Assembly (NCBI GenBank): GCA_036379875.1 | Contig: DASVFV010000098.1 | Span: 19,828 to 83,827 of the forward strand | Direction: 5' to 3' | Origin: Burkholderiales bacterium | Lineage (GTDB): Bacteria > Pseudomonadota > Gammaproteobacteria > Burkholderiales > SG8-39 | Length of the DNA stretch: 64,000 bases | Shown: positions 15,432 to 45,189 of the stretch, in pieces | How positions within the stretch are numbered: the stretch's first letter is position 1 | How the letters are laid out: each line of letters begins with the position of its first letter | The notes under the pieces: model-generated | Databases searched by the model: none | What the model was told of the DNA's origin: nothing | The model's input: the letters and a program-made list of their open reading frames with translations, nothing else | Made by a program: the position numbers and the translations under genes

Positions 15432-15435
<4 letters not shown>
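14806..15435 (-). CDS. MlaC/Ttg2D family periplasmic phospholipid-binding protein (orphan)
   Basis: Signal peptide and the hallmark WKIYDIVVEGVSLVLTYRSEF motif. The start overlaps the response-regulator stop (ATGA). Confidence 0.85.
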
Positions 15436-16814
<1,379 letters not shown>

Positions 16815-16863
16815 CACCCTTACCTCTTCTCTCCTTGAGAATGCCGATTGTTGCGATGCATCT

Positions 16864-18327: not shown

Positions 18328-18348
18328 GACATTGGACCGGAGCCAATG

Positions 18349-19674: not shown

Positions 19675-19676
19675 TC

Positions 19677-20396
19677 TCAGGCTGGACTCAGCACGGTGCC
19701 GACCACGCGCGCGCGGCAGAAGCCGAGGAAATCGCGCAGCCGCTCGAGCGCGCGGCTGCGGGTCGAGAAGCGCGCCACCACCAGCGCGCCGCCGGCGTAG
19801 GCCGCGGAGAGCTGCAGATCGGGGCCGAACGCGGCCGCCGGCGTATTCACCAGCACCGCGCGGTAGCGCTTGCCCGCCGCGGCGAGCAGCTCGAGCATGC
19901 GCGGGCGGCTCAGCAGCTCGAGCGGGTCGGCGCCGGCGCGGCCGGCCACCAGGACGGTGAGGTTGTCCTCGCAGTGCGCGAGGTGCGTGGCGCGGCCTTC
20001 GAGGAAGTCGGCGAGGCCGGCACGGTTGCGCAGGCCGAAAGCGCGGTGCAGCGAGGGGTCGCGGAAGTCCGCGTCGATGAGCAGCGTCGGCTCGCCGCGC
20101 CGGGCGAGCGCGCGCGCCAGCTCGGCCGCGACCTGCGTGCCGTTGTCGCCGGTCTCCGCGCTCACCACCGCCAGCACCGGGCGCCCGCAGTCGAACCAGT
20201 GCGCGCTCAGCTGGCGCGCGAGGTCGGCTGCCGCGAGCGGGCGCGCCGCGACGATCGGCATGCCGAGCGTGGCGATGAGATCCCTTTCGGAGCGCACGCG
20301 CTCGGCGCGCCGGGAAACGAGCGACAGGCAGACCAGGCCGACAACGACCGTGGCGGTCGCGAGGGCAAGTCCCGCGGCGGTGTGCGGCTCGAGCAT
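19677..20396 (-). CDS. BY-kinase (CpsD/EpsG)-like P-loop protein with degenerate Walker A and B motifs
   Basis: The Walker A' motif LLIDADFRDP is intact. Walker A reads SAETGDNGTQ (no Lys) and Walker B reads VLVNTP (Asn for Asp). There is no C-terminal Tyr cluster. An alternative start exists at ATG 20261. Confidence 0.7.
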   Translation of the reverse strand: MLEPHTAAGLALATATVVVGLVCLSLVSRRAERVRSERDLIATLGMPIVAARPLAAADLARQLSAHWFDCGRPVLAVVSAETGDNGTQVAAELARALARRGEPTLLIDADFRDPSLHRAFGLRNRAGLADFLEGRATHLAHCEDNLTVLVAGRAGADPLELLSRPRMLELLAAAGKRYRAVLVNTPAAAFGPDLQLSAAYAGGALVVARFSTRSRALERLRDFLGFCRARVVGTVLSPA

Positions 20397-30449: not shown

Positions 30450-31361
30450 CTACTCGGGCTTCACGCCGGCGGAGCGGATCACCGCGCCCCAGCGCTCGGT
30501 CTCCGCCTTCATGAACGCCGCGGTCTCGGCGGGGTTCATGCCGAGGGGATCGGCGGACAGCTCGGAGAGGCGGCGCAGGATGTCCGGATTGCGCAGCGCC
30601 GCCTCGACGCCGGCGGCAACCTTGTCGGCAATCGCCCGCGGCGTCTTCGGCGGGCCGACGATGCCGGACCATGCCACCGACTCGAAGCCGGGCAGCGTCT
30701 CCGCGACGGTCTGCACGTCCGGAAGCGAGCGATAGCGCCGCGTGCTCGCCACCGCGAGCGCGCGCAGCTTGCCGGCCTTCACGTGCGGCAGCGCGACGTC
30801 GAGGCGGTCGAACAAGATGTCCGCCTGCCCGGATGGGACGCGCCTGATTTGCAGCCCGCCCGCCATGCTCTTGAAGAGCTCCGCCGCCAGGTGTGAAGCC
30901 GTGCCGCCGCCCTGCGAGGCGTAGCTCAGCTTGCCCGGGTTTTGCCTTGCGTAAGCCATCAATTCCGGGACGGTGCGCGCCTGCACCTTCGGCTGCACGA
31001 GCAGCACGTTCGGGACCGCGGCGATCACCGTGATCGGCACGAAGCGCGTCGCGTCGTATCCGGGCTTGGGATAAAGCAGCGGGTTGATGACGAACGGCGG
31101 CGCAGCGGAAAGGAGCGTGTAGCCGTCGGGTGCGGCCTGGTACACCGCGGCGGCGCCCAGGTTGCCGTCGGAGCCCGGGCGGTTGTCCACGATGACCGGC
31201 TGTGCCCACTGCTTCGCCAGGCTCTCGGCGATGTAGCGCGGCAGCAGATCGGCGCTGCCGCCGGCCGCGGCCGGCACGACGATGTGCACCGGCTTGGCGG
31301 GCCACTCCTGCGCGAGCGCGCTTGCGGCGAGGAGAACGAAACCGAGGAAGAGCGCGCGCAC
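30450..31361 (-). CDS. Bug family (TctC-like) tripartite tricarboxylate transporter substrate-binding protein
   Basis: Start corrected to GTG 31361 (VRALFLGFVLLAASALA/QEWPAKPVHIVVP). The AAGGSADL block is typical of Bug proteins. Confidence 0.85.
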   Translation of the reverse strand: MRALFLGFVLLAASALAQEWPAKPVHIVVPAAAGGSADLLPRYIAESLAKQWAQPVIVDNRPGSDGNLGAAAVYQAAPDGYTLLSAAPPFVINPLLYPKPGYDATRFVPITVIAAVPNVLLVQPKVQARTVPELMAYARQNPGKLSYASQGGGTASHLAAELFKSMAGGLQIRRVPSGQADILFDRLDVALPHVKAGKLRALAVASTRRYRSLPDVQTVAETLPGFESVAWSGIVGPPKTPRAIADKVAAGVEAALRNPDILRRLSELSADPLGMNPAETAAFMKAETERWGAVIRSAGVKPE

Positions 31362-31374
31362 GCGCTGATTATAA

Positions 31375-31418
31375 TGAGGCGCGCATCGTGACCAGGTGAG
31401 GCGCGCATCGTGACCAGG
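31375..31418 (+). repeat. Perfect 22-bp tandem duplication (TGAGGCGCGCATCGTGACCAGG x2) spanning the cupin start codon
   Basis: Read directly from the sequence. Copy 1 is 31375-31396 and copy 2 is 31397-31418. Confidence 0.95.
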
Positions 31419-31694
31419 CCCAAGGCATCGTCGAAGCGTCTGCAGGAAACCGAGCGGGTCATCATCACGGAGTGGCGCCTCTCCGCCGGCGCCGAGACCG
31501 GATGGCACCGCCACGCGCACGATTACATCGTGGTGTGCCTGACTGCCGGGCAGCTCACCGCCGAGACGAAGGACGGGAACGTCGTCAACAATCTCGCCAT
31601 GGGCCAGACCTACACCCGCCCGGTCGGCGTCGAGCACAACATCGTCAATACCGGCGCGGCGGAATTCGCCTTCATCGAGGTGGAGCTCAAATGA
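31410..31694 (+). CDS. Cupin domain protein
   Basis: GWHRHAHDYIVVCL…GVEHNIVN cupin motifs. GTG start lies inside repeat copy 2. Confidence 0.7.
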   Translation: MTRPKASSKRLQETERVIITEWRLSAGAETGWHRHAHDYIVVCLTAGQLTAETKDGNVVNNLAMGQTYTRPVGVEHNIVNTGAAEFAFIEVELK

Positions 31695-32080
31695 CGCGCA
31701 AGCTGGTCTCGTCGGGATCGGGCTTCGAGCCGCGCATCGGGTTCTCGCGCGCGGTGCGGGTAGGCAACATGGTGGCGGTCTCGGGCACGGCGCCGATCGC
31801 GCCGGACGGCGGCGTCGCGGCGCCGGGCGATTGCTACGGGCAGACCCGGCGTTGCCTGGAGATCATCGCGCAGGCGATCGCGAAGGCGGGTCTCGGCCTG
31901 GACAGCGTGATTCGAACCCGCGTCATGCTCACCGACATCTCGCGCTGGGAAGAAGCGGCGCGCGCGCACGGCGAGGTGTTCGGCGAGATCCGGCCGGCGT
32001 CCACGTTCGTGGAAGTGAAAGGCTTGATCGAGCGCGGCTGGCTGGTCGAGATCGAAGCGGACTGCGTCGCCGAAAAGTGA
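31691..32080 (+). CDS. RidA/YjgF family protein
   Basis: Start at ATG 31691 (ATGA overlap). Blocks VRVGNMVAVSGT and PASTFVEVKGL…LVEIEA are present. Confidence 0.85.
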   Translation: MTRKLVSSGSGFEPRIGFSRAVRVGNMVAVSGTAPIAPDGGVAAPGDCYGQTRRCLEIIAQAIAKAGLGLDSVIRTRVMLTDISRWEEAARAHGEVFGEIRPASTFVEVKGLIERGWLVEIEADCVAEK

Positions 32081-32877
32081 GCTACGCGTACGTCCACGGC
32101 TACGAGCGGCGCGCCAACGCGCGCCTGCAGGACCAGCACGACGCGCTGGTCGATCTGCTGCACCACGACACGCGCTATCCCGAGGGCAGCCGGGTGCTCG
32201 AGGCCGGCTGCGGCACCGGTGCCCAGACGGCCACGCTGACGCGGAACAGTCCGCGCGCGCAATTCGTGTCGATCGACATCTCGACCAAGTCGCTGGCCGC
32301 GGCGAAGGAGAAAGTGCCGGCCGCGAACGTGCAGTTCCAGCAGGCCGACGTGCTCGCGCTGCCCTTCGCGCCCGCGTCGTTCGACCACGTGTTCGTCTGC
32401 TTCCTGCTCGAGCACCTGCCGCGGCCGCTCGAGGCGCTCGAGCGCCTCAAGGCGGTGCTCAAGCCCGGCGGCACGATCACGGTGATCGAGGGCGACCATG
32501 GCTCGACCTACTTCCATCCCGATAGCGCGGCCGCTTATGACGCGATCCGCTGCCAGGTCGAGCTGCAGCGCCGCTCGGGCGGCAACGCCAACATCGGGCG
32601 CGAGCTCTACCCGCTCGTCACGCGCGCCGGGTTCGACGCGGTGCGCGTGTCGCCGCGCATGGTGTACGTGGACTCGAGCCGCCCGCACCTGGTTGAGATG
32701 TTCACGCGCCGCACCTTCGCCGCGATGATCGAGGGCGTGCGCGAAGACGCGCTGCAGGCGGGCCTGATCTCGGCCGAGCGCTTCGACGAGGGTATTCGCG
32801 CGCTGTACCGCAGCGCCGACACGGACGGCGTGTTTTGCTATACCTTCTTCAAGGGGACCGGAACGAGACCGAAATGA
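32077..32877 (+). CDS. Class I SAM-dependent methyltransferase
   Basis: GTG start 32077 (GTGA overlap). Motif I VLEAGCGTG and LKPGGTITV are present. Confidence 0.8.
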   Translation: MSYAYVHGYERRANARLQDQHDALVDLLHHDTRYPEGSRVLEAGCGTGAQTATLTRNSPRAQFVSIDISTKSLAAAKEKVPAANVQFQQADVLALPFAPASFDHVFVCFLLEHLPRPLEALERLKAVLKPGGTITVIEGDHGSTYFHPDSAAAYDAIRCQVELQRRSGGNANIGRELYPLVTRAGFDAVRVSPRMVYVDSSRPHLVEMFTRRTFAAMIEGVREDALQAGLISAERFDEGIRALYRSADTDGVFCYTFFKGTGTRPK

Positions 32878-35800
32878 AGCCCTGGCTGCGCAGGATCCCG
32901 CGCCCGAAGCTGCTCCTCGCGCTCGCCACGCTGTTCGCCCTTTACCTCCTGCTCGGCGGCTATTTCCTGCCGCGCTACATCGAGCGCGCCATCCCGCAAT
33001 ACGTCGCCGAGCAGCTCAAGCGCAAGGCGAGCGTGCGCTCGGTCAGCTTCAACCCGCTGCTCTTCAAGCTCGAGCTGAACGACGTCGTGCTCATGGAGGC
33101 CGACGAGCGGCTGATCGCGCGCTTCCGGCGCCTGCTGGTGGACTTCGAGCTCTCCAGCCTCGCGCGCTGGGCGTGGACCTTCCAGACCGTCGCGCTCGAC
33201 GGGCTCGAGGTGCTGATCGACATCGCGCCCGACGAGAGCGTGAACCTGGCGGCGCTGGCCGACAGCCTGCCGAAGGGCGAGCCCAAGCCCGACGCCGCGC
33301 CGCCGCGCCTCGTGCTGCAGCACATCGACATCACCGACGCGGCCCTCACGTTCAGCGACCGCTCGGGCGAGCGGCCGCGGTTCGAGAGCGTGCGCGCGCT
33401 CGCGCTCGAGCTGCGCGACATCAGCACCCTGCCCGACCACCGCGGGCCCTACAGCATCGCGGCGCGCCTGCCCGCCGGCGCCACGCTATCGTGGCGCGGC
33501 GAGGTCTCGCTGCAGCCGATCTTCTCCGCCGGCGAGGTCGAGCTGAAAGCGGCCAAGCCGGCCACCGTGTGGCGCTTCCTGCAGGACGAGCTGGAGATCG
33601 CCGAGCCGCAGGGCGAGGTGGACGTCGCGCTGCGCTATCGCACCGCGTACGCGAAGGGCGCGCTCGAGCTCGGCGTGGAGGACCTGCGCGTCGCCGCGCG
33701 CGATCTCGCCGTTTCGCTGCGCGGCGCGAAGCAGCCGTTCTTCGCGCTCAAGGCCGCGCGCGCCAGCGGCGGGCGCTTCGACCTCGGCCGGCGCGAGCTG
33801 CGCGTGCCGCAGATCGAGCTGCGCGGCAGCACGGTGCGAGCCGAGATCGACGCGGCCGGCAAGCTCGACCTCGCCAGCCTGACGCGCGGTTCCCCGGCGG
33901 CGCCGCAAAAGCCCTCCGCGGGCGCGCCGTGGCGCGTGAACCTCGATTCGGTGCGGCTCGGCGACATCGCGCTCCAGCTGCGCGATCTCAGCCGCGTCGC
34001 GCCGCTCGCACTCGGCATCGGCTCGCTGGAGGCGGACCTTTCGGTGGCGCTGCAAACCGGCGCCGCGTCGCAGCTTACGATCGGCGACATCGGCGTGCGG
34101 CTCTCGAGCGTCACGGCCGGCCCTGCCGACGCCGAGCCGCTCATCGCGCTCTCGAGCATCGCCCTCGAAGGCGGCAGCGTCGACCTCGCCGGGCAGCGCT
34201 TCGCGGCACGCCGCCTGCGCCTCGAGGGCGGCTCGATCCAGCTCGCGCGCGAAGCCGACGCACGGCTGCCGCTGCTCGACCTTTTCACCTCGAAAATCCC
34301 TAAGCAGGAGAACAGCGGCGGCAAGCCCTGGGGGCTCGCGCTCGATGCCTTCGAGCTGCAAGCGCTCAAGATCGCGCTCGCCGACCGGAGCTTCACGCCG
34401 CCGGTGGCGTACGACATCGACCCGCTCACCGTGGCGGTGAAGAACATCAGCAACGAGGGGCGCGCGCCGATCCGCATGGAGGCCGCGCTGCGCGTCGCGC
34501 AGGGCGGCACGCTGCGCGTGAGCGGCGAGACCGTGCCGGCCGGGAACCGCGCCTCCGCGCGGGCGACGCTCGAGCGCCTGAGCCTCAAGCCCCTGCAGCC
34601 CGTGGTCGCGACGCATACCACGCTCGCGCTCGGCTCGGGCGACGTCTCGGCCTCCGTGCAGGCGCAGTACCGCGCGCTCAAGGATCGCGCCGAGGTGCGC
34701 GCGAGCGGCAGCGCGAGCCTCGACGACCTGCTGCTCGCCGAGGCTGCGAGCGGCGAGCCGCTGCTCGGCTGGAAATCGGTCGCGGCGAGCGGCATCGCGT
34801 TCAGCCTGGCGCCCGACCGCCTGGCGGTCGCCGATATCGTGCTGCGCGGCCTGCAGGCGAAGATCGTGGTCGCGAAGGACCGCAGCCTCAATCTCGCGCA
34901 GGCCATCAGGCCCGCGCCGGACGCGGCGAAAAGCGAGCCGCCGCGCGCCGAGCCGTTTCCCCTCGCGATCGAGCGCGTGCGCCTCGACAAGGCGGCGGTC
35001 GACTTCAGCGACCTCAGCCTGGTGCTGCCGTTCGCCGCCAAGATCGAGGACTTCGAGGGCGACGTGCTCGGCCTGAGCACCGACAGGGCGAGCCGCGCGG
35101 TGACCAAGATGGAGGGCCGCGTCGACCAGTTCGGCCTCGCGCGCGTGGAGGGCAGCCTCGCGACCTTCGACCCGAAGGCGTTCCTCGACCTGCGCGTGAC
35201 GTTCCGCAACGTCGAGATGGTGCCGCTCTCGCCCTATACGGCCACCTTCGCCGGCCGGCGCATCGAGGCGGGACGGCTCGGCCTCGATCTCCAGTACAAG
35301 ATCGACAAAGGCGCCCTCGCCGGCGACAACAAGGTGGAGCTCGACAAGTTCACGCTCGGCGAGCGCGTCGAGGCGCCCGGCGCGCTCAACCTGCCGCTCG
35401 ACCTCGCGGTCGCGCTGCTTACCGACTCGGAGGGGCGCATCGCGCTAGCCGTCCCGGTGAAGGGCAACGTCAACGAGCCGGAGTTCTCCTACGGGCACGT
35501 GATCTGGCAGGCGATCACGACCGTGCTCACGAACATCGTCACCGCGCCGTTCCGCGCGCTGTTCGGCGGCGGCGGCGACGCGGTGGAAAGCATCGCCTTC
35601 GACGCCGGGCGCGGCGCGCTCACGCCGCCCGAGCGCGAGAAGCTGAAGCGCGTCGCCGAGGCCCTCGCCAAGCGTCCGCAGCTCAAGCTGGTGGTCGAGG
35701 GGCAGTACGGCGAGGCCGACCGCGCCGCGCTGCGCCAGCGCGACGTGGCCATGGCGATCTCGACCAGGCTCGAGCGCGAGGTCGAGGGCGGCGAGCCGCA

Positions 35801-36194
35801 GCCGGTCAACGCACGCGACGCGCGCACCCAGCGCGCGCTGGAAGAGCTGTTCGTCGAGCGCGCTTCCGAACAGGCATTCACCGCTTTTGCGGAGGAAACC
35901 GCCAAGGCGCGCGGCAAGCCGGTGCAGCGCGTCAGCCGGCTGGCCGCGCTGACCGGCAACGCGAGCGAAGACGGAGAGTTCTACGACGCCCTGCTCGCGC
36001 GCCTGGTCGAGAGCGCGCCGCTGCCCGCCGAGGCGCTCGAGAAGCTCGGCGCGGCGCGCGCCGGCGCGGTCGAGCAGCACCTCGTCCAGGCGCTCGCGGT
36101 GCCCGCCGCGCGCGTCGAGCGCAAGCCCGCCTCGAGCGCCGACGGCGTGCGCGCGAAACTCGCGCTCGACGTGGCGGGCTCCACTAAGATGTAG
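32874..36194 (+). CDS. DUF748 domain protein (AsmA-like, N-terminally membrane-anchored, 1106 aa)
   Basis: Start at ATG 32874 (ATGA overlap). It has an N-terminal TM helix and long repetitive beta-rich sequence. DUF748-type blocks are recognised by eye. Confidence 0.8.
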   Translation: MKPWLRRIPRPKLLLALATLFALYLLLGGYFLPRYIERAIPQYVAEQLKRKASVRSVSFNPLLFKLELNDVVLMEADERLIARFRRLLVDFELSSLARWAWTFQTVALDGLEVLIDIAPDESVNLAALADSLPKGEPKPDAAPPRLVLQHIDITDAALTFSDRSGERPRFESVRALALELRDISTLPDHRGPYSIAARLPAGATLSWRGEVSLQPIFSAGEVELKAAKPATVWRFLQDELEIAEPQGEVDVALRYRTAYAKGALELGVEDLRVAARDLAVSLRGAKQPFFALKAARASGGRFDLGRRELRVPQIELRGSTVRAEIDAAGKLDLASLTRGSPAAPQKPSAGAPWRVNLDSVRLGDIALQLRDLSRVAPLALGIGSLEADLSVALQTGAASQLTIGDIGVRLSSVTAGPADAEPLIALSSIALEGGSVDLAGQRFAARRLRLEGGSIQLAREADARLPLLDLFTSKIPKQENSGGKPWGLALDAFELQALKIALADRSFTPPVAYDIDPLTVAVKNISNEGRAPIRMEAALRVAQGGTLRVSGETVPAGNRASARATLERLSLKPLQPVVATHTTLALGSGDVSASVQAQYRALKDRAEVRASGSASLDDLLLAEAASGEPLLGWKSVAASGIAFSLAPDRLAVADIVLRGLQAKIVVAKDRSLNLAQAIRPAPDAAKSEPPRAEPFPLAIERVRLDKAAVDFSDLSLVLPFAAKIEDFEGDVLGLSTDRASRAVTKMEGRVDQFGLARVEGSLATFDPKAFLDLRVTFRNVEMVPLSPYTATFAGRRIEAGRLGLDLQYKIDKGALAGDNKVELDKFTLGERVEAPGALNLPLDLAVALLTDSEGRIALAVPVKGNVNEPEFSYGHVIWQAITTVLTNIVTAPFRALFGGGGDAVESIAFDAGRGALTPPEREKLKRVAEALAKRPQLKLVVEGQYGEADRAALRQRDVAMAISTRLEREVEGGEPQPVNARDARTQRALEELFVERASEQAFTAFAEETAKARGKPVQRVSRLAALTGNASEDGEFYDALLARLVESAPLPAEALEKLGAARAGAVEQHLVQALAVPAARVERKPASSADGVRAKLALDVAGSTKM

Positions 36195-36197
36195 GCC

Positions 36198-36530
36198 ATG
36201 AAGAACGACGCCCCGCTGTACGAAGTCGAGCGCCGCGCCGAGCACGCCGCGCGCCCCGGCTTCCGCATCACCGAGCTGCAGATCTCGAAGAGCCAGAAGG
36301 TGCCGTGGCACTACCACAGCAACGTGCAGGACACCTTCTACGTGCTGGAAGGCGAGCTGCGCATCTTCCTGCAGGAGCCGAAGGAGGAAGTGCGTTTGAA
36401 GCCCGGCGAGAGCTTCACCGCGCGCGTGCGCCGCCCGCACCTCGTGACCAACGCCGGCGAGACCTCCGCCACCTTCCTCGTGCTGCAGGGCATCGGCCAA
36501 TACGACTTCGTCCCCCTGGTGAACAAATGA
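36198..36530 (+). CDS. Cupin domain protein
   Basis: VPWHYHSNVQDTFYVLEGEL…PHLVTN. Confidence 0.8.
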   Translation: MKNDAPLYEVERRAEHAARPGFRITELQISKSQKVPWHYHSNVQDTFYVLEGELRIFLQEPKEEVRLKPGESFTARVRRPHLVTNAGETSATFLVLQGIGQYDFVPLVNK

Positions 36531-37243
36531 TGGACGCAAAACAGGAGCTCGCTCCGGGCGGCAAGCTGCGCGTGGGCCTCAACTACGGCAACTTCCTCCT
36601 CGTCTTGAAGGACAACCCCGACGGCTCGCCGCGCGGCATCGCGCCCGACCTCGGCCGCGAGCTCGGCAAGCGGCTCGGCGTGCCGGTCGAGTTCGTGAAA
36701 TTCGCGCAGGCCGGCCAGCTCGCCGACGGCGTGCGCGACGGCAAGTGCGAAGTCGGCTTCCTCGGCGCGGAGCCGCAGCGCGCCAACGAGATCGCCTTTA
36801 CCAAGGCCTACCTCGAGATCCCGGTCACCTTCCTCGTGCCGGCGGGGTCGAAGATCCGCAGCATCGCGGACGTGGACCGCGAAGGCGTGCGCATCTCGGT
36901 GTCGGCGCGCAGCGCCTACGATCTTTACCTCAGCCGCACGCTCAAGCACGCGAAGCTCCTGCGCGTCGAAGGAATCGACGCCTCCTACGAGCAATTCAAC
37001 AAAGACGGGCTCGAGGTGCTGGCCGGCCTGAAGCCGCGCCTGGTCTCGGACGCCGAGAAGCTGCCCGGCTCGCGCGTGCTCGACGGCCAGGTGACGGGCG
37101 TGCAGCAGGCAGTCGGTGTCCCGAAGAAACATGAGAGCGCGGCGAAGTTCACGCGCGAATTCGTCGAAGAGATCAAGCGCTCCGGGCTGGTGGCCAAGAC
37201 CATCGAGAAGCACGGCGTGAAAGGAGTGACGGTAGCCCCATGA
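36527..37243 (+). CDS. SBP_bac_3-like (type 2 periplasmic-binding fold) protein without a signal peptide
   Basis: Start at ATG 36527 (ATGA overlap). GKLRVGLNYGN…GIAPDLGRELGKRLGVPVEFV is typical of family 3 SBPs. The N-terminus MMDAKQELAPGG is hydrophilic. Confidence 0.75.
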   Translation: MMDAKQELAPGGKLRVGLNYGNFLLVLKDNPDGSPRGIAPDLGRELGKRLGVPVEFVKFAQAGQLADGVRDGKCEVGFLGAEPQRANEIAFTKAYLEIPVTFLVPAGSKIRSIADVDREGVRISVSARSAYDLYLSRTLKHAKLLRVEGIDASYEQFNKDGLEVLAGLKPRLVSDAEKLPGSRVLDGQVTGVQQAVGVPKKHESAAKFTREFVEEIKRSGLVAKTIEKHGVKGVTVAP

Positions 37244-38004
37244 ATGCACCCAATGAGCTGAAGGTTTACTGGCGCCCCGGCTGCTCGAGCTGCGTGAAGG
37301 TGAAGGAGTTCCTCCAGCAGCAGGGCGTGGAGTTCGAGTCGATCGACGTGTCGGCGCGGCCGGAGGCGATGAACGAGCTGCTCGAGCTCGGCGTGAAGAG
37401 CGTGCCGGTGGTGTCGCGCGGGCGCGAGTACGTGTTCGCGCAGGCGCTCGAGGACGTGTCGAAGTTCATCGGAAAATCGGTGGAGTTCAAGCGCCTGGCG
37501 CCGGAGGAGCTGATGCGCAAGTGGCTGCACGTGCTGCGCGCCGCGCAGCGCCATGCGCTGCAGATCCCGGCCGAGCGCCTGAACCAGCGCGCCACGCCGG
37601 GCCGCGACCGCAGCATCCGTACCCTCGCCTACCACATCTACCAGATCCCCGACGCCTTCCTGCAGGCGATCCAGAACGGCGTGCCGAACCTCGCGCAGGT
37701 GTACGACGTGCCGCCGCCCGCAGAGGTGAAGACCGGCAAGGACATTGCCGCCTTCGGCGCGCAGATGGAAAAGAAGCTGCAGGCCTGGTGGAGCGCGCTC
37801 CCGGACAAGTCGGGCCGCCAGAAGGTGCACACCTACTACGGCGACCGGCCGATGCACGAGCTGCTCGAGCGCTGCACCTGGCACTCGGCGCAGCACGCGC
37901 GCCAGATCATCTCCGTGCTCGAGGGCTTCGGGGTCAAAGTCGACGGCCCGCTCACCGCGGCGGACTATGCCGGGCTCCCGCTGCCGAAGGGAATGTGGGA
38001 GTAA
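37240..38004 (+). CDS. Glutaredoxin-like domain fused to a DinB-family domain
   Basis: N-terminus VYWRPGCSSCVKVKEFL (CxxC). The C-terminal part is a DinB-type helical bundle (…TWHSAQHARQI). ATGA overlap with the previous gene. Confidence 0.8.
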   Translation: MNAPNELKVYWRPGCSSCVKVKEFLQQQGVEFESIDVSARPEAMNELLELGVKSVPVVSRGREYVFAQALEDVSKFIGKSVEFKRLAPEELMRKWLHVLRAAQRHALQIPAERLNQRATPGRDRSIRTLAYHIYQIPDAFLQAIQNGVPNLAQVYDVPPPAEVKTGKDIAAFGAQMEKKLQAWWSALPDKSGRQKVHTYYGDRPMHELLERCTWHSAQHARQIISVLEGFGVKVDGPLTAADYAGLPLPKGMWE

Positions 38005-39038
38005 GCAAGGAGCAGGCAAAGCAGGCGCTCGACAAGCTGTTCGGCGACATGGCGGGCGCCATGGCCGCCGGCATGGCGTACATCGGCGTGCGCACCGGGC
38101 TTTTCAAGGTGATGGCGGGCAAGGGCGCGCTCTCTGCTTCCGACATCACGAGACTCTCTGGCTTAACACCACGGTATGTCGAAGAGTGGCTGAAGGGCAT
38201 GGTGGCTTCCGGCTACCTGCTCTACGACCCGGCGGCGCAGACCTACGCGCTTCCCGAAGAGCTCGCCTACTTCCTCGCGTCGGACGACACCGACCACTTC
38301 GTCGGCGGGCTGTTCGCCATGGTGCCGCCGCTCATGCGCGTCGCTCCCGGCGTCGCGCGCGCCTTCGCGGAGGGCGGCGGCGTGCGCTTCGAGGAGTTCG
38401 GGCCCGACTGCGTCCACGCCCTCGACCTCATCAACCACGGCCAGTACCAGGCGCGCCTCGCCGAATACTGGCTGAAGTCGCTTCCGGACGTCGCGGCGAA
38501 GCTCGCGGCGGGCGGGCGCGCGCTCGACGTGGGCTGCGGCTCGGGCGCGGTGAGCGCGGCGCTGGCCAAGGCCTTCCCGAAGGCCGAAGTGATCGGCATC
38601 GACCCGGACGCGCAATCGATCGAGCGGGCGCGCGAGGCCGCGCCGGGAGCGAAGTTCGTCACCGGAACGACCAGGGATCTCCCCCGGAACGAAAAATACG
38701 ACCTGATCACGCTCTGCGACGTGCTGCACGACCTCGCCGAGCCGCAGAACACGCTCGAGGAGATCCGCGCGCTGCTCAAGCCCGACGGCACGCTGTTCAT
38801 CGTCGAGCCGCGCGCCGCCGACCGGCTCGAGGACAACCGCAACGCGGTGTCGGCCACGTTCTACGGCTTCAGCCTGTTCCACTGCATGACCCAGTCGCTG
38901 GCGCGCGGCGGGCCGGGGCTCGGCACCTGCCTGGGGCCCGCCGCCACCGAGGCGCTGGTGCGCCGGGCGGGCTACACCCGCTTCCACCGCCTGGACATCC
39001 GCAGCCTCACCAATCTGTTCTATTCTGCGCAGGCATGA
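37995..39038 (+). CDS. SAM-dependent methyltransferase with an N-terminal winged-helix-like domain
   Basis: Motif I ALDVGCGSG and LKPDGTLFIVE. GTG 37995 chosen as start (10-nt overlap), so the start is uncertain. Confidence 0.75.
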   Translation: MGVSKEQAKQALDKLFGDMAGAMAAGMAYIGVRTGLFKVMAGKGALSASDITRLSGLTPRYVEEWLKGMVASGYLLYDPAAQTYALPEELAYFLASDDTDHFVGGLFAMVPPLMRVAPGVARAFAEGGGVRFEEFGPDCVHALDLINHGQYQARLAEYWLKSLPDVAAKLAAGGRALDVGCGSGAVSAALAKAFPKAEVIGIDPDAQSIERAREAAPGAKFVTGTTRDLPRNEKYDLITLCDVLHDLAEPQNTLEEIRALLKPDGTLFIVEPRAADRLEDNRNAVSATFYGFSLFHCMTQSLARGGPGLGTCLGPAATEALVRRAGYTRFHRLDIRSLTNLFYSAQA

Positions 39039-39391
39039 TCCTGCGGCTGTTGCTGGTCTGGCTGATCAATGCCGTGGCACTGATCGCGGTCGCCTACCTG
39101 ATGCCGAGCATCAGCGTGTCGAGCTTCGGCGCCGCGCTGGTCGCGGCGCTGGTGCTCGGCCTGATCAACGCGGTGGTGCGCCCGGTGCTCGTGCTGCTCA
39201 CCCTGCCGGTCACCATCCTCACGCTCGGCCTCTTCATCTTCGTGCTGAACGGCCTCTTGTTCTGGGCGGTCGGCGCCTGGCTGGAAGGCTTCAACGTGGG
39301 CGGCTTCTGGGCCGGCGTGCTTGGCGCGATCCTGTTCAGCATCGTCTCTTGGCTGCTTTCCGCGCTCGTCCAAAGCGCTCCGACCCGGTAA
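39035..39391 (+). CDS. DUF360 / phage-holin-4-like (YvlD-type) small membrane protein
   Basis: ATG 39035 (ATGA overlap). 118 aa with four hydrophobic helices and an N-terminus MILRLLLVWLINAVALI typical of the family. Confidence 0.75.
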   Translation: MILRLLLVWLINAVALIAVAYLMPSISVSSFGAALVAALVLGLINAVVRPVLVLLTLPVTILTLGLFIFVLNGLLFWAVGAWLEGFNVGGFWAGVLGAILFSIVSWLLSALVQSAPTR

Positions 39392-40386
39392 TCATCCTCC
39401 CGTATCTCGGATACGGGACCGCCAGGAACCTGACCGTCTGCGGCCGCGTGCTCGAGGACGCCGGCTTCCGCCCCGCGCGCGAGCGCGATAGCCGCTGGGG
39501 CAACCTGATCGAGTTCTGGAAGCGCCTCGAGTCCGACGAGCTGCCCGGCGCGCGGCTGCGCGCGCGCTTCCTCGGCCGCGAGGTCGAGGGCGTGACCGAC
39601 CGCGAGGGCTATTTCAGGCTCGAGATCAAGCCGCGCGGGCGCCTCGGACCCGGGCTGTGGCAGGAGGTCGGGCTCGAGCTGCAGGATTTCAATGCGAAGG
39701 CGACGGCCGGTGTGCTCGTACCGTCGCCGCGCGCGCGCTTTGGCCTGATCAGCGACATCGACGACACCATCGTGGCGAGCAATGTGACGCGCAAGGTGCG
39801 CATGCTGCTCACCGTCGCGCTGAACAGCGCGCGCACGCGCAAGCCGTTTCCCGGCGTGGCGGCGTTCTACCGCGCGCTGCACGCCGGCGTGAACCCGGTG
39901 TTCTACGTCTCGAAGAGCCCGTGGAACCTCTACGCGCCGCTCCTCGAGTACCTCGAGGTGCAGCGATTCCCGCACGGACCGCTGCTGCTGCGCGATTTCG
40001 GCTGGAGGCCGGAGAAGGAGCACAAGCGCAAGGCGATCGAGGAGATCCTCGCCACCTATCCCAGGCTGCCGTTCATCCTGAGCGGCGACAGCGGCGAGCA
40101 GGACCCCGAAGTCTACGCCGCGCTGGTCAGGCGCTTTCCGAAGCGCATCCGGGCGATCTATATCCGCTCCGTGGATCCGAAGCGCATCACGGCGATCGAA
40201 AAGCTGGCCGCGGAGGTCGCGAAAACCGGCTGCCAGCTAGTGCTCGCGCCGGACAGCGAGCCGGCCGCGGCGCACGCCGCGGCCGAGGGGCTGATTCAGG
40301 CTTCCGAGCTGCGCGCGGTGCGCGCCGACGCGGCCTCGGACAGGAGCTCCTCGAAGCCGGCGCTGTCGAGCGGCGCGCTGAAGTAG
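39349..40386 (+). CDS. App1-like phosphatidate phosphatase family protein (DUF2183)
   Basis: PYLGYGT…GRVLE N-terminus and the DxDxT motif ISDIDDTIV. The TTG start overlaps the DUF360 gene by 43 nt. Confidence 0.7.
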   Translation: MAAFRARPKRSDPVIILPYLGYGTARNLTVCGRVLEDAGFRPARERDSRWGNLIEFWKRLESDELPGARLRARFLGREVEGVTDREGYFRLEIKPRGRLGPGLWQEVGLELQDFNAKATAGVLVPSPRARFGLISDIDDTIVASNVTRKVRMLLTVALNSARTRKPFPGVAAFYRALHAGVNPVFYVSKSPWNLYAPLLEYLEVQRFPHGPLLLRDFGWRPEKEHKRKAIEEILATYPRLPFILSGDSGEQDPEVYAALVRRFPKRIRAIYIRSVDPKRITAIEKLAAEVAKTGCQLVLAPDSEPAAAHAAAEGLIQASELRAVRADAASDRSSSKPALSSGALK

Positions 40387-42899
40387 TGGCCCTGCCATTC
40401 CTCGCAGCCTAGTCCCAGCAGGCGCTCGAGCTGCGGCGCGGTCTCCACGCCCTCCGCCGCGACCGAGATGCCGAGCGTGGCGGCAAGCGCGGTGATGGCG
40501 CGCACGATCGCCGCGTCGGCGGCCTGCGAGTCGATGGCCTGCAGGAACGAGCGGTCGATCTTCAGCTTGTCGATCGGCAGGCTGCGCAGGTAGGCGAGGC
40601 TCGAGTAGCCGGTGCCGAAGTCGTCGATCGCGAAGCGCACGCCGAGCTTGCCGATCGCCTCCAGCGTGGCGACGTTCTCCTGCAGGCCCGACATCAGCAC
40701 GCGCTCGGTGACCTCGAGCTCGACGCTCCTGCCGTCCAGGCCGTTCGCGACCAGCGCGTGCTCGAGGCGCTGCAGGTAGTCCTGCCCCTGCGCGAGGCCG
40801 GGCGCCGAGACGTTCACCGCGTACCAATAGCGCCGGCCGTAGCGGCGCTGCCAGGCGCCGGCCTGCGAGAGCGCGCGCTCGAGCGTCCAGTCGTCGATGG
40901 CGCGGATCAGGCCGCACTCCTCGGCGAGCGGCACGAAGTGCTCGGGCCCGAGCAGGCCGCGCTCCGGGTGCTGCCAGCGCACCAGCGCCTCGGCGCCCAC
41001 CACGCGCCCGCGCCAGTGCAGCGGGCTCGCCGCGCGGTCGGGCGGCCAGCCGCGCACCACCGGCTGCCAGTACAGCACCAGCTCGCCGCGCGTGAGCGCC
41101 GAGCGCAGCTCGTTCTCCAGGCGCAGGCGCTCGGCGGCGCGCGCATTCAGCGCCGGCGCGAAGAAGCGCCAGGTGCCCTTGCCGCTTTCCTTCGCGTGGT
41201 AGAGCGCCGCGTCGGCGTTCTTCAGCAGCTCGATGAAGTCGCGCCCGTCGTTCGGGTAGATGCTGATGCCGATCGACGCCGCCACGTTGAGCGTCTTGCC
41301 CTGCACGGTGAAGGGCCGCGCCAGCACGCCGAGCAGGCGTTGCGCGAGCGCTGCGGCATCTTCAACGGTCTTGACTGCTTGCAGAAGCACGAAATCGTCG
41401 CCGCCCAGGCGCGCCAGCGTGTCCTCGCCGTGCACCAGGTTGCCGAGCCGCTCGGCGACCGAGCGCAGCAACGCGTCGCCGGCGCGGTGCCCGAGCGAGT
41501 CGTTGACCAGCTTGAAGCGGTCGAGGTCGATGCACAGCAGCGCGAACTGCGAGCGGCTGCGCGCCGCGGTGAGGATCGCCTGGCTCGCGCGGTCGGCGAG
41601 CAGCGTGGAGTTGGGCAGGCCGGTCAGCGCGTCGCGCGTGGTGAGCTGCTCGATGCGCGCCTCGGCGTGCTTGCGCGCCGTGATGTCGGCGCCGGTGCCG
41701 CGCCAGCCGATCACCTGGCCGGAGGGGTCCTTCACCGGCACGCCGCTGACCGCGAGCCAGATCACCCCGCCCGACTTCGTGATCATGCGGTGCAGCAGGT
41801 CGCGGAACGGCTGGCCCTCGCGCCCGGCGAACCACTCGTCGACCGCCTTCGGCTCGCCGAGCGGCATGAAGTCTTTCGGCTTGCGGCCGAGCAGCTCGGC
41901 GCGCGAGTAGCCGAGCACCGCCTCGACGCGTTCCGAGAGATACGTGTAGCGCCATTGCGCGTCGGTCTCCCACACGTATTCGCCCGCCGCGTCCACCACG
42001 TCGCGGAAGCGCTGCTCGCGCTCGGCGACCGCGGCCTCGGCGCGCTTGCGCTCGTCGATGTCGGCCACCGTGCCGGACACGTGCTTGGCGCGCCCCTGCG
42101 CGGTGTGCTCCGTGACGCGCCCGCGCGCGTACAGCCACTTCCACTCGCCGCGCGAGGTGCGGATGCGGAACTCGGTCTCGAACACCGGCGCCTCGCCCTT
42201 CAGCGCGCGCACCAGCGCCTCGGTGTAGGGCACCCGGTCGTCGGGGTGCATCATCGCGATCAGCTCGGCGCCGAGGGTCACGCCGCTCGGCGAGCGCTTG
42301 TGGCCGAGGAAGCGCACCCAGCCGTCGCCCGCCGAGAGCTCGTTGCGCTCGGTGTCGAAGTGGAACTCGGCCAGGTTGCCGCCGTCGAGCGCGAGCTCGA
42401 GCCGTTCCTTGGCCAGCCACAGCGCGCGTTCCGCGGCGCGCTGCTCGGTGACGTCGCGGCCCACGCCGCGGTAGCCGAGGAACTCGCCGTCGGCGTCGAA
42501 GCGCGACTGCCCGGAGATGATGTGTACCTGGCGCGCGCCGCGCTCGTCCACGCGCGAGATCTCCATGTCGAAGAAGGTCTGGCCTTCCTTGAGGCGCTCG
42601 AGGTGGGCCTGCAGCGCGGCCGGCTCGACCTCCACGCCGGGGATTTCCCAGATGCGCTTGCCGTAGGTCGGCATCTGGCCGAAGAAGGTGGCGACCGGCG
42701 CGCCGCCCGACAGCCAGACCAGGCGGTGCTCGACGTCGGTTTCCCAGAACCAGTCGGCGGTGAGCTCGGTCAGGCCGCGGAAGCGCGCCGACTCGCCGCG
42801 CGCGCGGTCGAGGTCGGCGTCGCGCTTGCGCGAGAACACGTGCATCGCCACGTACACCGCGACCCCGGTGGCCGCGACGAGCAGGACGATGTCGAGCAC
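40296..42899 (-). CDS. Membrane-anchored multi-PAS/PAC GGDEF-EAL signalling protein (GGDEF motif reads GGDDF; EAL motifs intact)
   Basis: GTG start with an N-terminal TM helix. Several PAS/PAC repeats are present. Motifs: RLGGDDFVLL, EALVRW, DDFGTGYSSL. Confidence 0.9.
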   Translation of the reverse strand: MLDIVLLVAATGVAVYVAMHVFSRKRDADLDRARGESARFRGLTELTADWFWETDVEHRLVWLSGGAPVATFFGQMPTYGKRIWEIPGVEVEPAALQAHLERLKEGQTFFDMEISRVDERGARQVHIISGQSRFDADGEFLGYRGVGRDVTEQRAAERALWLAKERLELALDGGNLAEFHFDTERNELSAGDGWVRFLGHKRSPSGVTLGAELIAMMHPDDRVPYTEALVRALKGEAPVFETEFRIRTSRGEWKWLYARGRVTEHTAQGRAKHVSGTVADIDERKRAEAAVAEREQRFRDVVDAAGEYVWETDAQWRYTYLSERVEAVLGYSRAELLGRKPKDFMPLGEPKAVDEWFAGREGQPFRDLLHRMITKSGGVIWLAVSGVPVKDPSGQVIGWRGTGADITARKHAEARIEQLTTRDALTGLPNSTLLADRASQAILTAARSRSQFALLCIDLDRFKLVNDSLGHRAGDALLRSVAERLGNLVHGEDTLARLGGDDFVLLQAVKTVEDAAALAQRLLGVLARPFTVQGKTLNVAASIGISIYPNDGRDFIELLKNADAALYHAKESGKGTWRFFAPALNARAAERLRLENELRSALTRGELVLYWQPVVRGWPPDRAASPLHWRGRVVGAEALVRWQHPERGLLGPEHFVPLAEECGLIRAIDDWTLERALSQAGAWQRRYGRRYWYAVNVSAPGLAQGQDYLQRLEHALVANGLDGRSVELEVTERVLMSGLQENVATLEAIGKLGVRFAIDDFGTGYSSLAYLRSLPIDKLKIDRSFLQAIDSQAADAAIVRAITALAATLGISVAAEGVETAPQLERLLGLGCEEWQGHYFSAPLDSAGFEELLSEAASARTARSSEA

Positions 42900-42908
42900 G
42901 CCGGGCGC

Positions 42909-44699
42909 CTAGCGGACGGCCGCGTCGCGCACCGGCGGCGCGACCTTGAGCACTTCGTCCATCGTGGTGATGCCCGCGCCGACCTTCATCGCGCCGGAGA
43001 TGCGCAGCGGCTTCATGCCGTCCTTGAAGGCCTGCTCGCGCAGCGCGGTGAGATCGGCGTTCTGGCTGACCAGGCTTTTCAGGGACGAATTGAAAACCAG
43101 CGTTTCGTAGATGCCCATGCGCCCCATGTAGCCGGTCATGCGGCACTCCAGGCAGCCGACCGGCTTGTAGAGGCGCGCCGGGTGCTTGGACTTCCACGGC
43201 GCGACCAGCGCGTCCCACGCTTCCTGGTCCTCGGCGCGGTTGAGCTCCACGGTCTGCTTGCAGTGCGTGCAAAGCGTGCGCACCAGGCGCTGCGCCATGA
43301 TGCCGTTCAGCGTCGCGTTCAGCAGGTACGGCGGAACGCCGAGCTCGATCAGCCGCGCGATCGCGCTCGGCGCGTCGTTGGTGTGCAGGGTGGAAAGCAC
43401 GAGGTGGCCGGTGAGCGCGGCCTGCACCGCCATCTCGGCGGTCTCCAGGTCGCGGATCTCGCCCACCATGATGATGTCCGGGTCCTGGCGCATCAGCGCG
43501 CGCACGCCCTCGGCGAAGCCGAGCTCGATCGCCTGCACCACCTGCATCTGGTTGAACGCGGGCTCGATCATCTCGATCGGGTCCTCGATGGTGCACACGT
43601 TCACTTCGATGGTGGCGAGCGACTTGAGCGTCGAGTACAGCGTGGTGGTCTTGCCCGAGCCGGTCGGCCCGGTAACCAGCACGATGCCGTTCGGCCGCTC
43701 GGTCATCTCCTTCCAGCGCCTCTGGTCGTCCTCCGAGAAGCCGAGCTCGCTGAAGTCGCGCACCAGCACCTCGGGGTCGAAGATGCGCATCACCAGCTTC
43801 TCGCCGAACGCGGTCGGCAGCGTGGAGATGCGCAGCTCGATGTCCTGGTCGTTGGAGCGCGTCTTGATGCGCCCGTCCTGCGGCCGGCGCTTTTCCACCA
43901 CGTCCATGCGCGCGAGGATCTTGATGCGGCTCGTCATCGCGGCGAGCACGCCGGCGGGGATCTGGTACACCTGGTGCAGCACGCCGTCGATGCGGAAGCG
44001 CACGATGCCGTGCTCGCGGCGCGGCTCGACGTGGATGTCGCTCGCGCGCTGCTCGAAGGCGTACTGCCACAGCCAGTCGACCACGCGCACCACGTGCGCG
44101 TCGTTCGCGTCGAGCTGCTTGTCGGACTTGCCGAGCTCGACGAGCTGCTCGAAATTCGCCAGCCCCGACTGGCCGCTGGTTCTCTGGCCGGCACCCTTGA
44201 TCGACTTCGCCAGGTTGTAGAACTCGACCTGGTAGCGCTCGATGTCGAGCGGGTTGGCGATCACGCGCCGGATCTCGCGCTTGATCATGCGCCCGAGCTC
44301 AGGCTCCCAGTCGCGCACGCCCGGCTCGGCGGTGGCGATCAGCGCTTCCTTGGTATTGATCGCCACCGGCAGGATGCGAAAGCGCGTCGCGTACGCCGAC
44401 GACATCACTTCGGTGACCGCGGAGAAATCGATCTTGAGCGGATCGATGTGCAGGTATTCCATGCCGAAGCGCCTGGCGAGCCACTCGGTCAGCGTTTCCA
44501 GGGTGAGAGCGGTGTTGCCTTTCTTCCACTTCTGGTCCGCCACGATGACCAGCGGATGTATCGTGCCGCGGTAGTAGCGGCGCTCCTTCCTGAGCTGCTC
44601 GGCCGCCGCCGGATCGGCCATCTTGTCCTCGATCATCCAGTCGAGGATCTGGGCGAGGCTCAGCCGGCTTCCGGTTTCCGTCTTAACTGCTTGTTGCAT
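42909..44699 (-). CDS. GspE/PulE/PilB family secretion ATPase (orphan)
   Basis: Start corrected to MQQAVKTETG (ATG at 44699). It has a T2SSE_N-like region, Walker A GPTGSGKTT, Asp/His boxes, and a tetracysteine (CTHCK…GCLECRMTGY). Confidence 0.85.
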   Translation of the reverse strand: MQQAVKTETGSRLSLAQILDWMIEDKMADPAAAEQLRKERRYYRGTIHPLVIVADQKWKKGNTALTLETLTEWLARRFGMEYLHIDPLKIDFSAVTEVMSSAYATRFRILPVAINTKEALIATAEPGVRDWEPELGRMIKREIRRVIANPLDIERYQVEFYNLAKSIKGAGQRTSGQSGLANFEQLVELGKSDKQLDANDAHVVRVVDWLWQYAFEQRASDIHVEPRREHGIVRFRIDGVLHQVYQIPAGVLAAMTSRIKILARMDVVEKRRPQDGRIKTRSNDQDIELRISTLPTAFGEKLVMRIFDPEVLVRDFSELGFSEDDQRRWKEMTERPNGIVLVTGPTGSGKTTTLYSTLKSLATIEVNVCTIEDPIEMIEPAFNQMQVVQAIELGFAEGVRALMRQDPDIIMVGEIRDLETAEMAVQAALTGHLVLSTLHTNDAPSAIARLIELGVPPYLLNATLNGIMAQRLVRTLCTHCKQTVELNRAEDQEAWDALVAPWKSKHPARLYKPVGCLECRMTGYMGRMGIYETLVFNSSLKSLVSQNADLTALREQAFKDGMKPLRISGAMKVGAGITTMDEVLKVAPPVRDAAVR

Positions 44700-44754
44700 A
44701 GGCAAAAGACTATACCGGAACCGCCGGGGCACGTTTGTTGCGGCGTCCGGCGGG

Positions 44755-45189
44755 ATGCAGGACAAGCTGATCGATCGGCAAAACCGTGTGTACGCCGTGA
44801 TCTTCGACACGGGCGAAGACCCGGTCGCCGGCCTCACGCGCTTCGCGGAGAAGGAAAAGCTCGACGCCGCGAGCTTCACCGCGATCGGCGCGTTCAGCGA
44901 GGCCACGCTCGGCTACTTCGACTGGCAGACCAAGGACTACGAGCACATCCCGGTGCGCGAGCAGACCGAGGTGCTCTCGCTCATCGGCGACATCGCGCTC
45001 GAGGAACGCGGCGGGCGCAAGGTGCACGCGCACGTGGTGCTCGGCAAGCGCGACGGCGCGGCGCTCGGCGGCCACCTCCTCGCGGCCAAGGTGCGGCCGA
45101 CGCTCGAGGTCGTGCTGGACGCTTCGCCCGGGTGCCTCAAGCGGCGCCACGACCCGGCAAGCGGACTTTCGCTGATCAAGCTGGACTAG
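44755..45189 (+). CDS. PPC (DUF296) domain protein
   Basis: Start corrected to MQDKLIDRQ (ATG at 44755). Typical blocks are FTAIGAFSEATLGYFD…VHAHVVLG. Confidence 0.75.
   Translation: MQDKLIDRQNRVYAVIFDTGEDPVAGLTRFAEKEKLDAASFTAIGAFSEATLGYFDWQTKDYEHIPVREQTEVLSLIGDIALEERGGRKVHAHVVLGKRDGAALGGHLLAAKVRPTLEVVLDASPGCLKRRHDPASGLSLIKLD

Follow-up and report, generated by a model that had tools for sequence, protein, structure and literature searches.

The superfamily of S-transferase-like (STL) proteins is defined by a triad of histidines together with metal dependence, and three histidines (H67, H160, and H164 of BstA) are the sole residues conserved across the eight bacillithiol transferases of Bacillus subtilis (PMC5815605). 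The STL thiol transferases (B. subtilis BstA-H and the mycothiol S-transferases) have a four-helix-bundle fold, the last two of the three BstA histidines show an HxxxH spacing, and the DinB thiol-transferase family has so far been characterised with bacillithiol and mycothiol. At the level of gene organisation, compact high-GC genomes contain uber-operons or accreted accessory operons, whose genes are co-directional, joined by 4-nt stop-start overlaps, arranged as a core with a variable periphery, and located in a fixed slot. Here we analyse an array of ten plus-strand genes (g1 to g10) in a 64,000-nt stretch of contig DASVFV010000098.1 from a Burkholderiales bacterium; this whole stretch is called the window. 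The array shares all these organisational features with the accreted operons and differs from them in its unusually long run of overlaps (nine in a row) and in tight junctions that are re-formed after gene loss or gain. We propose, with moderate confidence, that it is an accreted mosaic accessory operon of the stress or detoxification type, with a conserved core of g6, which encodes a cytoplasmic protein with a substrate-binding protein (SBP) fold, and g7, which encodes a fusion of a glutaredoxin (Grx)-like domain and a DinB-like domain, to which g8, g9, and g10 are usually attached.

Ten consecutive coding frames were found at positions 31410-40386 of the plus strand according to codon-position GC profiles, with a divergent minus-strand gene on the 5' side and a convergent minus-strand gene on the 3' side. 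The GC content of third codon positions (GC3) is 0.88-0.95 in all ten open reading frames, which is the codon-position GC pattern of real coding sequence, and the same ten genes were recovered independently by a GC3-based gene caller, which favoured a later start for g10 (39448). An earlier note on this DNA had described the ten genes as joined by stop-start overlaps or tiny gaps, and direct reading confirmed every junction: ATGA at 31691, 32874, 36527, 37240, and 39035, GTGA at 32077, a 3-nt gap at 36195-36197, a 10-nt overlap at 37995, and a 43-nt overlap at 39349. The tight packing also exceeds the local background. All nine junctions of the block show gaps of 3 nt or less and six of the nine are overlaps of exactly 4 nt, compared with 31-34% and 9-14%, respectively, of the same-strand pairs that serve as background, taken from the rest of the window and from related loci. 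With p = 0.33, and assuming independent junctions, the chance of nine tight junctions out of nine is about 5e-5. The array is the longest tight run in the window and the next longest has five genes; this second run lies on the minus strand at 14806-20396, with gaps of 60 nt or less. The region has about 70% GC, which is uniform with that of the flanks and shows no compositional break.

Gene content around g7 was surveyed in 57 loci that contain a full-length g7 relative and up to 10 kb of flanking sequence, each from a distinct GTDB species, and absence was scored only where the flanks suffice. Nearly all survey loci belong to metagenome-assembled genomes (MAGs) of soil Burkholderiales or Betaproteobacteria, and they were retrieved with an alignment of 15 g7 relatives. 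A second survey, anchored on g4, gave four further contexts. Some Burkholderiales-type loci (L018, L022, L028, L053, L035, L040, and L055) are labelled as uncultured Enterobacteriaceae, Clostridia, Deltaproteobacteria, or Myxococcales, which probably reflects binning or labelling errors and not the true distribution.

The ten genes were found together in none of the approximately 31 evaluable loci, and each gene has its own frequency near g7 (Table 1). The block had been put forward as one unit; it is not kept as such, since what relatives retain is a core of two to five genes, and close relatives differ from the window by single genes. Locus L072, whose g7 is 90% identical, shows the order g1-g2-g3-g5-g6-g7-g9-SnoaL-g10, without DUF748 and g8. 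Loci L069 and L070 (g7 88% identical) show g1-g2-GFA-g3-g4-g6-g7-g8-g9-g10, without g5 and with an extra GFA-family gene. The P0126 contig (g4 76% identical) contains nine genes and lacks g8, while L073 (g4 66% identical) contains g3 to g10 with different genes on the 5' side. Locus L067, with a g7 96% identical, is cut inside g4 and was not judged. Furthermore, DUF748 homologs with 48 and 34% identity stand alone, one beside glycosyltransferases and the other in an Ideonella-type context. The genes interleaved in the relatives are also small single-domain enzymes: GFA, SnoaL/DUF4440, and an extra DinB.

Junctions stay tight in these variants, as seen at g3/g5 of L072 (-4), g7/g9 of P0126 (+2), and g2/GFA/g3 of L069 (-4 and -4). 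The 4-nt overlap between g6 and g7 is kept in 26 loci besides the window. Gene g8 follows g7 with a 10-nt overlap in 14 loci and precedes g6 with a 4-nt overlap in 15 loci; g9 is next in order, and g10 is often found 3' of g9. A neighbour-joining tree of g7 shows that gene arrangements form clades. Clade A has g6-g7-g8 and a 5' side that grows first by g5 and g3, next by g4, and last by g1-g2; the order in clade B is g8-g6-g7-g9; and in several clades, amounting to about 22 species, g7 occurs in the absence of the remaining nine genes. The single-gene differences among relatives and the clade-wise arrangements thus show that the ten-gene state is the endpoint of genes accreting step by step, with a single gene lost now and then, and not an ancestral unit. 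The tight coupling had been taken to imply a stoichiometric ten-component system, a claim that fails on the same grounds: overlaps form between whichever genes adjoin, and the block is not conserved.

Clustering of all called proteins of all loci identified the chromosomal position of the core, which is a fixed slot in uncultured soil Burkholderiales. The 5' side of the slot is formed by the TctC gene; many relatives, and not the window, add a Rieske dioxygenase alpha/beta pair, and some an ABC1 kinase and a GNAT gene. The 3' side is formed by the convergent PAS-GGDEF-EAL gene, the MshEN-T2SSE ATPase, and an MFS transporter. MshEN is a domain that binds cyclic di-GMP (c-di-GMP). Synteny of the GGDEF-EAL/MshEN-ATPase pair extends over more than 20 species, and the two genes seem to form a c-di-GMP signalling unit that has nothing to do with the array. 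At their 3' ends, g10 and the PAS-GGDEF-EAL gene share a convergent overlap of 91 nt (40296-40386), with third codon positions in register, and this overlap recurs in at least 13 contigs: L002, L004, L010, L016, L019, L050, L051, L067, L069, L070, L072, L073, and P0126. It differs in clade B, and the C-terminal tail of g10 that lies in the overlap shows conservation at the protein level.

Table 1. Features of the array and its flanks in window coordinates, with the number of evaluable loci in which each array gene was found near g7.
Feature	Position	Strand	Length	Evidence or description	Loci with the gene near g7
TctC-family receptor, divergent; backbone, outside the array	30450..31361	-		Pfam TctC, 204 bits; syntenic in relatives	
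Palindrome ATTATAAT	31368..31375	both		Sole TATAAT hexamers in the window, one per strand; candidate -10 element	
Exact tandem duplication, two copies of GAGGCGCGCATCGTGACCAGG	31376..31419	+	22-nt period	0 expected by chance	
g1, small cupin	31410..31694	+	94 aa	Pfam Cupin_2, 29 bits	3/31; also in P0126 contig
g2, Rid/YjgF family	31691..32080	+	129 aa	Pfam Ribonuc_L-PSP, 90 bits	4/31
g3, class I S-adenosylmethionine (SAM) methyltransferase	32077..32877	+	266 aa	Pfam Methyltransf_11/25	10/33
g4, DUF748 giant protein, AsmA/YhdP-like	32874..36194	+	1106 aa	PF05359, 830 bits	3/33; also at this position in L073 and P0126 contig
g5, small cupin	36198..36530	+	110 aa	Pfam Cupin_2, 49 bits	10/53; missing in L069/L070
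g6, SBP-fold protein, core gene	36527..37243	+	238 aa	Pfam SBP_bac_3	33/55
g7, glutaredoxin/NrdH-like + DinB/YfiT-like fusion, core anchor	37240..38004	+	254 aa	Pfam Glutaredoxin + DinB_2	
g8, Rv2258c/TnmJ-type methyltransferase with winged-helix N-domain	37995..39038	+	347 aa	Pfam HTH_65 + Methyltransf_12	28/54
g9, DUF360/Phage_holin_4_2 small membrane protein	39035..39391	+	118 aa	PF04020, 115 bits	28/51
g10, App1-like HAD-type phosphatase	39349..40386	+	345 aa	PF09949 APP1_cat, 166 bits	17/41
PAS-GGDEF-EAL protein, convergent; backbone, 3' end of slot	40296..42899	-		Syntenic in >20 loci	
MshEN-T2SSE ATPase	42909-44906			Next after the PAS-GGDEF-EAL gene	

The gene order and domain labels of the earlier note were recovered, with all ten Pfam assignments reproduced; among the label details, the domain families hold and the name RidA proved too specific for g2, as described below.

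The g7 protein matches Pfam Glutaredoxin with 52 bits and both DinB_2 and DinB above their cut-offs. An AlphaFold2 model (predicted local distance difference test, pLDDT, 87; predicted template-modelling score, pTM, 0.81) shows a thioredoxin-fold domain at residues 7-76 and a four-helix bundle at residues 88-229. Foldseek matched the N-terminal domain to NrdH and BC3987 with template-modelling (TM) scores up to 0.89 (3zit, 0.89), PDB sequences of NrdH and glutaredoxins were matched as well, and the domain is a thioredoxin fold with a CxxC active site. The C-terminal domain matched DR0053 (6iz2, TM 0.83), YfiT (1rxq), 3di5, and 2p1a, and in the model it has the DinB bundle fold of the STL superfamily. 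Residues C15 and C18 (CSSC), H132, H215, and H219 are invariant in 15 sequences with 69-100% identity, and H215 and H219 show the HxxxH spacing of BstA, so that the C-terminal domain carries three histidines predicted to be of the STL metal-binding type. In contrast to the STL thiol transferases, g7 is fused to an N-terminal CSSC glutaredoxin/NrdH-like domain, and its host is a proteobacterium, expected to use glutathione and not bacillithiol or mycothiol. Canonical glutathione S-transferases (GSTs) also show a thioredoxin-fold domain followed by an all-helical domain, and many of them appear in the Foldseek list; however, these matches are weak (TM about 0.3-0.4, root-mean-square deviation >10 A), and the helical domain of g7 is a DinB bundle and not a GST C-terminal domain. 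The likeness of g7 to GSTs is an architectural analogy and not homology.

Relatives of g7 form more than 1150 clusters at 90% identity, and all record titles among them that give a taxon belong to MAGs, for the most part with the label Burkholderiales or Betaproteobacteria. Clustering at 50% gave 121 representatives with E <=1e-30, many of which span both domains. No description of the Grx-DinB fusion was found in the searchable literature, and the fusion is a moderately large, uncharacterised family. In loci L008, L009, L011, L012, L017, L031, L034, and L042, g7 stands alone between genes for a LigD-like ligase/polymerase, a DUF72 protein, and a glyoxalase-like protein, a neighbourhood that might point to a connection with DNA-damage or electrophile stress.

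The nearest solved relatives of g6 are AncCDT-3 (5jos, E 8.5e-13) and AncCDT-1, both reconstructed ancestors of the cyclohexadienyl dehydratase (CDT) lineage. Conservation among g6 orthologs is strong: across 33 species, about 100 positions reach >=95%, and the Arg of the EPQR85A motif (EPQRA) is among the conserved positions; the position of the Asp for alpha-amino binding is without Asp. We take this Arg to be the carboxylate-binding Arg of amino-acid-binding proteins, and the missing Asp to be their alpha-amino-group binder. The retained Arg and the missing Asp therefore suggest that the ligand of g6 is a carboxylate other than an alpha-amino acid. This resembles the non-catalytic Pu1068/AncCDT-2 state (10.1101/157495). 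As in PaCDT and the SBP ancestors, g6 belongs to the type II SBP fold family and keeps the carboxylate-binding Arg of the PER/PQR motif. It was tried as a cyclohexadienyl dehydratase and rejected, because Glu173, the general acid of this enzyme (10.1101/157495), which is present in PaCDT, is replaced by Arg: in the HMMER alignment to 5jos, chain residue 184 (Glu173) is opposite the Arg of LKPRLV in g6. Furthermore, and unlike PaCDT, g6 has no export signal, which makes it cytoplasmic, and no adjoining ABC transporter genes. Its N-terminus, MMDAKQELAPGGKLRVG, contains no hydrophobic signal, and its orthologs, of about 237 residues, begin at the -4 overlap. The array contains no ABC genes, and a periplasmic substrate-binding protein of an ABC transporter was rejected on the lack of an export signal and of adjacent permease or ATPase genes. 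Two tandem g6 paralogs, with 68 and 49% identity, are present in L005 (8137-9608) and L006 (7812-9321).

In g8, the winged-helix domain matches PF21320 with 63 bits and the SAM motif DVGCGSG is visible. Full-length alignments were obtained with 5f8c (Rv2258c of Mycobacterium tuberculosis, E 9e-45) and 8g5s (TnmJ, E 6e-42), which share the Rv2258c-type winged-helix N-terminal domain (PF21320). By its sequence, g8 is an Rv2258c-like protein, with a winged-helix N-terminal domain and a class I SAM methyltransferase domain, and it differs from TnmJ in a genomic context unrelated to enediyne biosynthesis.

The DxDxT motif of g10, DIDDT (SDIDDT), is invariant in 18 orthologs, and with its APP1_cat domain g10 is a putative Mg-dependent phosphatidate phosphatase of the App1/lipin type; no solved relative was found by sequence. 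The TTG start of g10 at 39448, which would abolish the 43-nt overlap with g9, was rejected, since it drops 33 residues that include a conserved N-terminal motif. Twenty related loci conserve this motif, IILPYLGYGT..GRVLEDEGF, at the protein level, the only in-frame start on its 5' side is the TTG at 39349, and several g10 orthologs start with GTG or TTG at the aligned position. The 43-nt overlap between g9 and g10 therefore stands.

On the 5' side of the core, g2 was tried as RidA and rejected, with 60.9 bits for TIGR00004 against a cut-off of 106.25 and a Ser at the position of Arg105 (PAS instead of PAR). In the alignment, PAS of g2 stands opposite PAR of PH0854 and TM0215-type proteins. Arg105 is likewise missing from 3i7t, the best relative of g2 in the PDB. 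In the Rid family, Arg105 is required for RidA catalysis; because this residue is missing and the TIGR00004 score is below the cut-off, g2 is not a bona fide RidA. For g3, all specific NCBIfam models scored far below their cut-offs. In g4, PF05359 covers residues 9-1081, the full length of the protein, with a weak YhdP match at the N-terminus, and g4 homologs also give AsmA matches. The hydrophobic N-terminus of g4, LLLALATLFALYLLLGGYFL, is an N-terminal membrane anchor, and a full-length DUF748 domain behind such an anchor is what is expected from an AsmA-like/DUF748 protein, as g4 is predicted to be. Two tandem g5-like cupins are found in L002 and L007 (about 8579-8902).

The head of the array contains two sequence elements. 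The first is the palindrome ATTATAAT, located in the 48 nt that separate g1 from the divergent TctC gene (GTG start at 31361), which contains both TATAAT matches of the window, with 0.64 expected by chance and two matches reached in 13 of 100 shuffles. As the only TATAAT hexamers lie just 5' of g1, the element is compatible with an array promoter at this site, although this is no proof of it, and a consensus scan found no -35 partner. The palindrome might also serve as a -10 element in both directions; its distance from the TctC start codon on the minus strand is only about 7 nt. The second element, the tandem duplication of GAGGCGCGCATCGTGACCAGG, doubles the Shine-Dalgarno-like GAGG and the GTG start of g1, and its first copy opens a mini-ORF of three codons (GTG ACC AGG TGA) directly before the real g1 start. 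This duplication is absent 5' of g1 in L072 and L069. Terminator-like sites occur at chance level, with none in a gap between genes and no excess inside the array, and no Rfam family was matched anywhere in the window. The ten genes probably share one promoter and a single transcript.

The statement of the earlier note that no described pathway fits the array agrees with our searches, in which Pfam and NCBIfam gave matches at domain level only. No NCBIfam model gave a named equivalog for any of the ten genes, every specific model being far below its cut-off, and PADLOC reported generic methyltransferase-domain (mad2) matches and a weak Rid match only. An anti-phage defence system was therefore rejected, as PADLOC gave no match beyond generic domains. 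An integron-like cassette array or mobile island was also rejected: there is no intergenic room, repeats are at chance level, the GC content is uniform, no Rfam element is present, and the flanks are syntenic. The searchable literature on DUF748, DUF2183, DUF360, Rv2258c, and Grx-DinB fusions yielded no functional description.

Among the explanations for the array, one undescribed system of all ten genes in fixed stoichiometry, combining small-molecule tailoring with envelope and lipid functions, is in our judgement the least probable. The nine tight junctions, significantly tighter than the background, the lack of a matching pathway, and the eight or nine genes found together in L002, L073, and the P0126 contig argue for it; however, it is largely refuted by non-conservation, as no evaluable locus has all ten genes. 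Each of g4, g5, and g8 is lacking from one or another relative with a g7 at 88-90% identity, foreign GFA and SnoaL genes are inserted, g1 and g2 are confined to the nearest relatives, g7 occurs alone in about 22 species, and DUF748 is stand-alone elsewhere. Very improbable as well is the absence of any functional link, with unrelated neighbours squeezed together by genome compaction and a co-transcription that is biologically meaningless. Gene content is indeed fluid and tight junctions are generally frequent in this lineage, with gaps of 3 nt or less in 31% of the background pairs, but g6 stays paired with g7, and g8, g9, and g10 stay associated with them, in more than 25 species and across two gene orders, which is more than neighbourhood drift would preserve. 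We also consider improbable a system for envelope or lipid homeostasis in which g4, as an AsmA-like lipid bridge, g9, and g10, as an App1-like phosphatidate phosphatase, act together and the soluble enzymes are accessory. Gene g4 accompanies g9 and g10 in only a handful of loci and lies four genes away from them, DUF748 homologs elsewhere are not beside DUF360 or App1 genes, and g10 is often absent where g9 is present; in favour of the system stand three families that are all membrane- or lipid-related, an intact DxDxT, the adjacency of g9 and g10 in at least 17 loci, and the presence of the DUF360 protein YvlD among those rising in the Listeria phage shock protein (membrane-stress) response (PMC12791056).

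A narrower proposal, unlikely in our view and still to be taken seriously, is that g6, g7, and g8 form a dedicated, undescribed three-enzyme route for one specific metabolite, for instance the thiol conjugation, reduction, and methylation of a carboxylate-bearing compound, with the other genes being incidental. The recurrent g6/g7 overlap, the attachment of g8 by overlaps in both orders, the very strong conservation of g6 orthologs, and the invariant catalytic motifs of g7 would agree with such a route. However, L072, the P0126 contig, L023, and L038 have no g8 (L027, with a partial copy at the contig edge, was unscored), about 22 species retain g7 without g6, nothing pointing to a substrate was found, and g6 is without the known CDT catalytic residue. 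A version extended by the DUF360/App1 pair has a similarly small chance of being right: these genes would form a dedicated, so far undescribed thiol-dependent module in uncultured soil Burkholderiales that binds, thiol-conjugates or reduces, and methylates one carboxylate-bearing compound, with the Grx-DinB protein as a convergent, metal-dependent counterpart of GSTs. The accreted mosaic accessory operon that we favour also has points against it. No full sigma-70 promoter was found anywhere in the sigma-70 scan, and internal promoters are possible. The background gene calls come from a simple GC3-based caller written for this analysis, most loci are fragmented MAG contigs, and some taxonomic labels are unreliable. 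Furthermore, L002 and L073 keep g3 to g10 at 63-66% g4 identity and P0126 keeps nine genes, so that in a sub-lineage with eight or nine genes over considerable divergence some functional cohesion beyond the core is possible. Finally, the proposed stress or detoxification role is drawn from analogy at family level only.

In an accreted mosaic accessory operon, g6-g7 would be the old recurrent part, usually joined by g8, g9, and g10. In the clade of the window, the 5' side would have received g5 and g3, then g4, and then g1-g2 by stepwise additions, each since lost singly in some close relative, and overlaps would have been re-formed with whatever neighbour, as a result of operon compaction in the lineage and not of complexes with fixed stoichiometry. 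The g7 protein may act with a low-molecular-weight thiol, which in a proteobacterium would be glutathione, and its target may be a small molecule that is electrophilic or oxidised, or a protein thiol; the CSSC redoxin domain of g7 would recycle the low-molecular-weight thiol. The g6 protein would bind a carboxylate-bearing ligand and g8 would methylate a small molecule, while g9, g10, and g4 would act on the membrane or envelope, and the cupins, the Rid protein, and g3 would act independently on other small molecules. The likely theme of the array is thus the handling of reactive small molecules by thiol-dependent chemistry along with upkeep of the membrane, and the genes inserted in relatives (GFA, SnoaL-like, and extra DinB) are consistent with this theme.

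The array is a cautionary case for genome scanning: a long run of stop-start overlaps is a sign of co-expression and compaction and not of a shared pathway. The same junctions re-form upon gene loss or insertion. The novelty that remains is the uncharacterised Grx-DinB fusion and its persistent SBP-fold partner, a widely conserved pairing of modest interest. If the fusion is a glutathione- and metal-dependent S-transferase, the DinB thiol-transferase family would be extended into Gram-negative bacteria that use glutathione, and the fusion would provide a handle on the detoxification chemistry of abundant uncultured soil bacteria.

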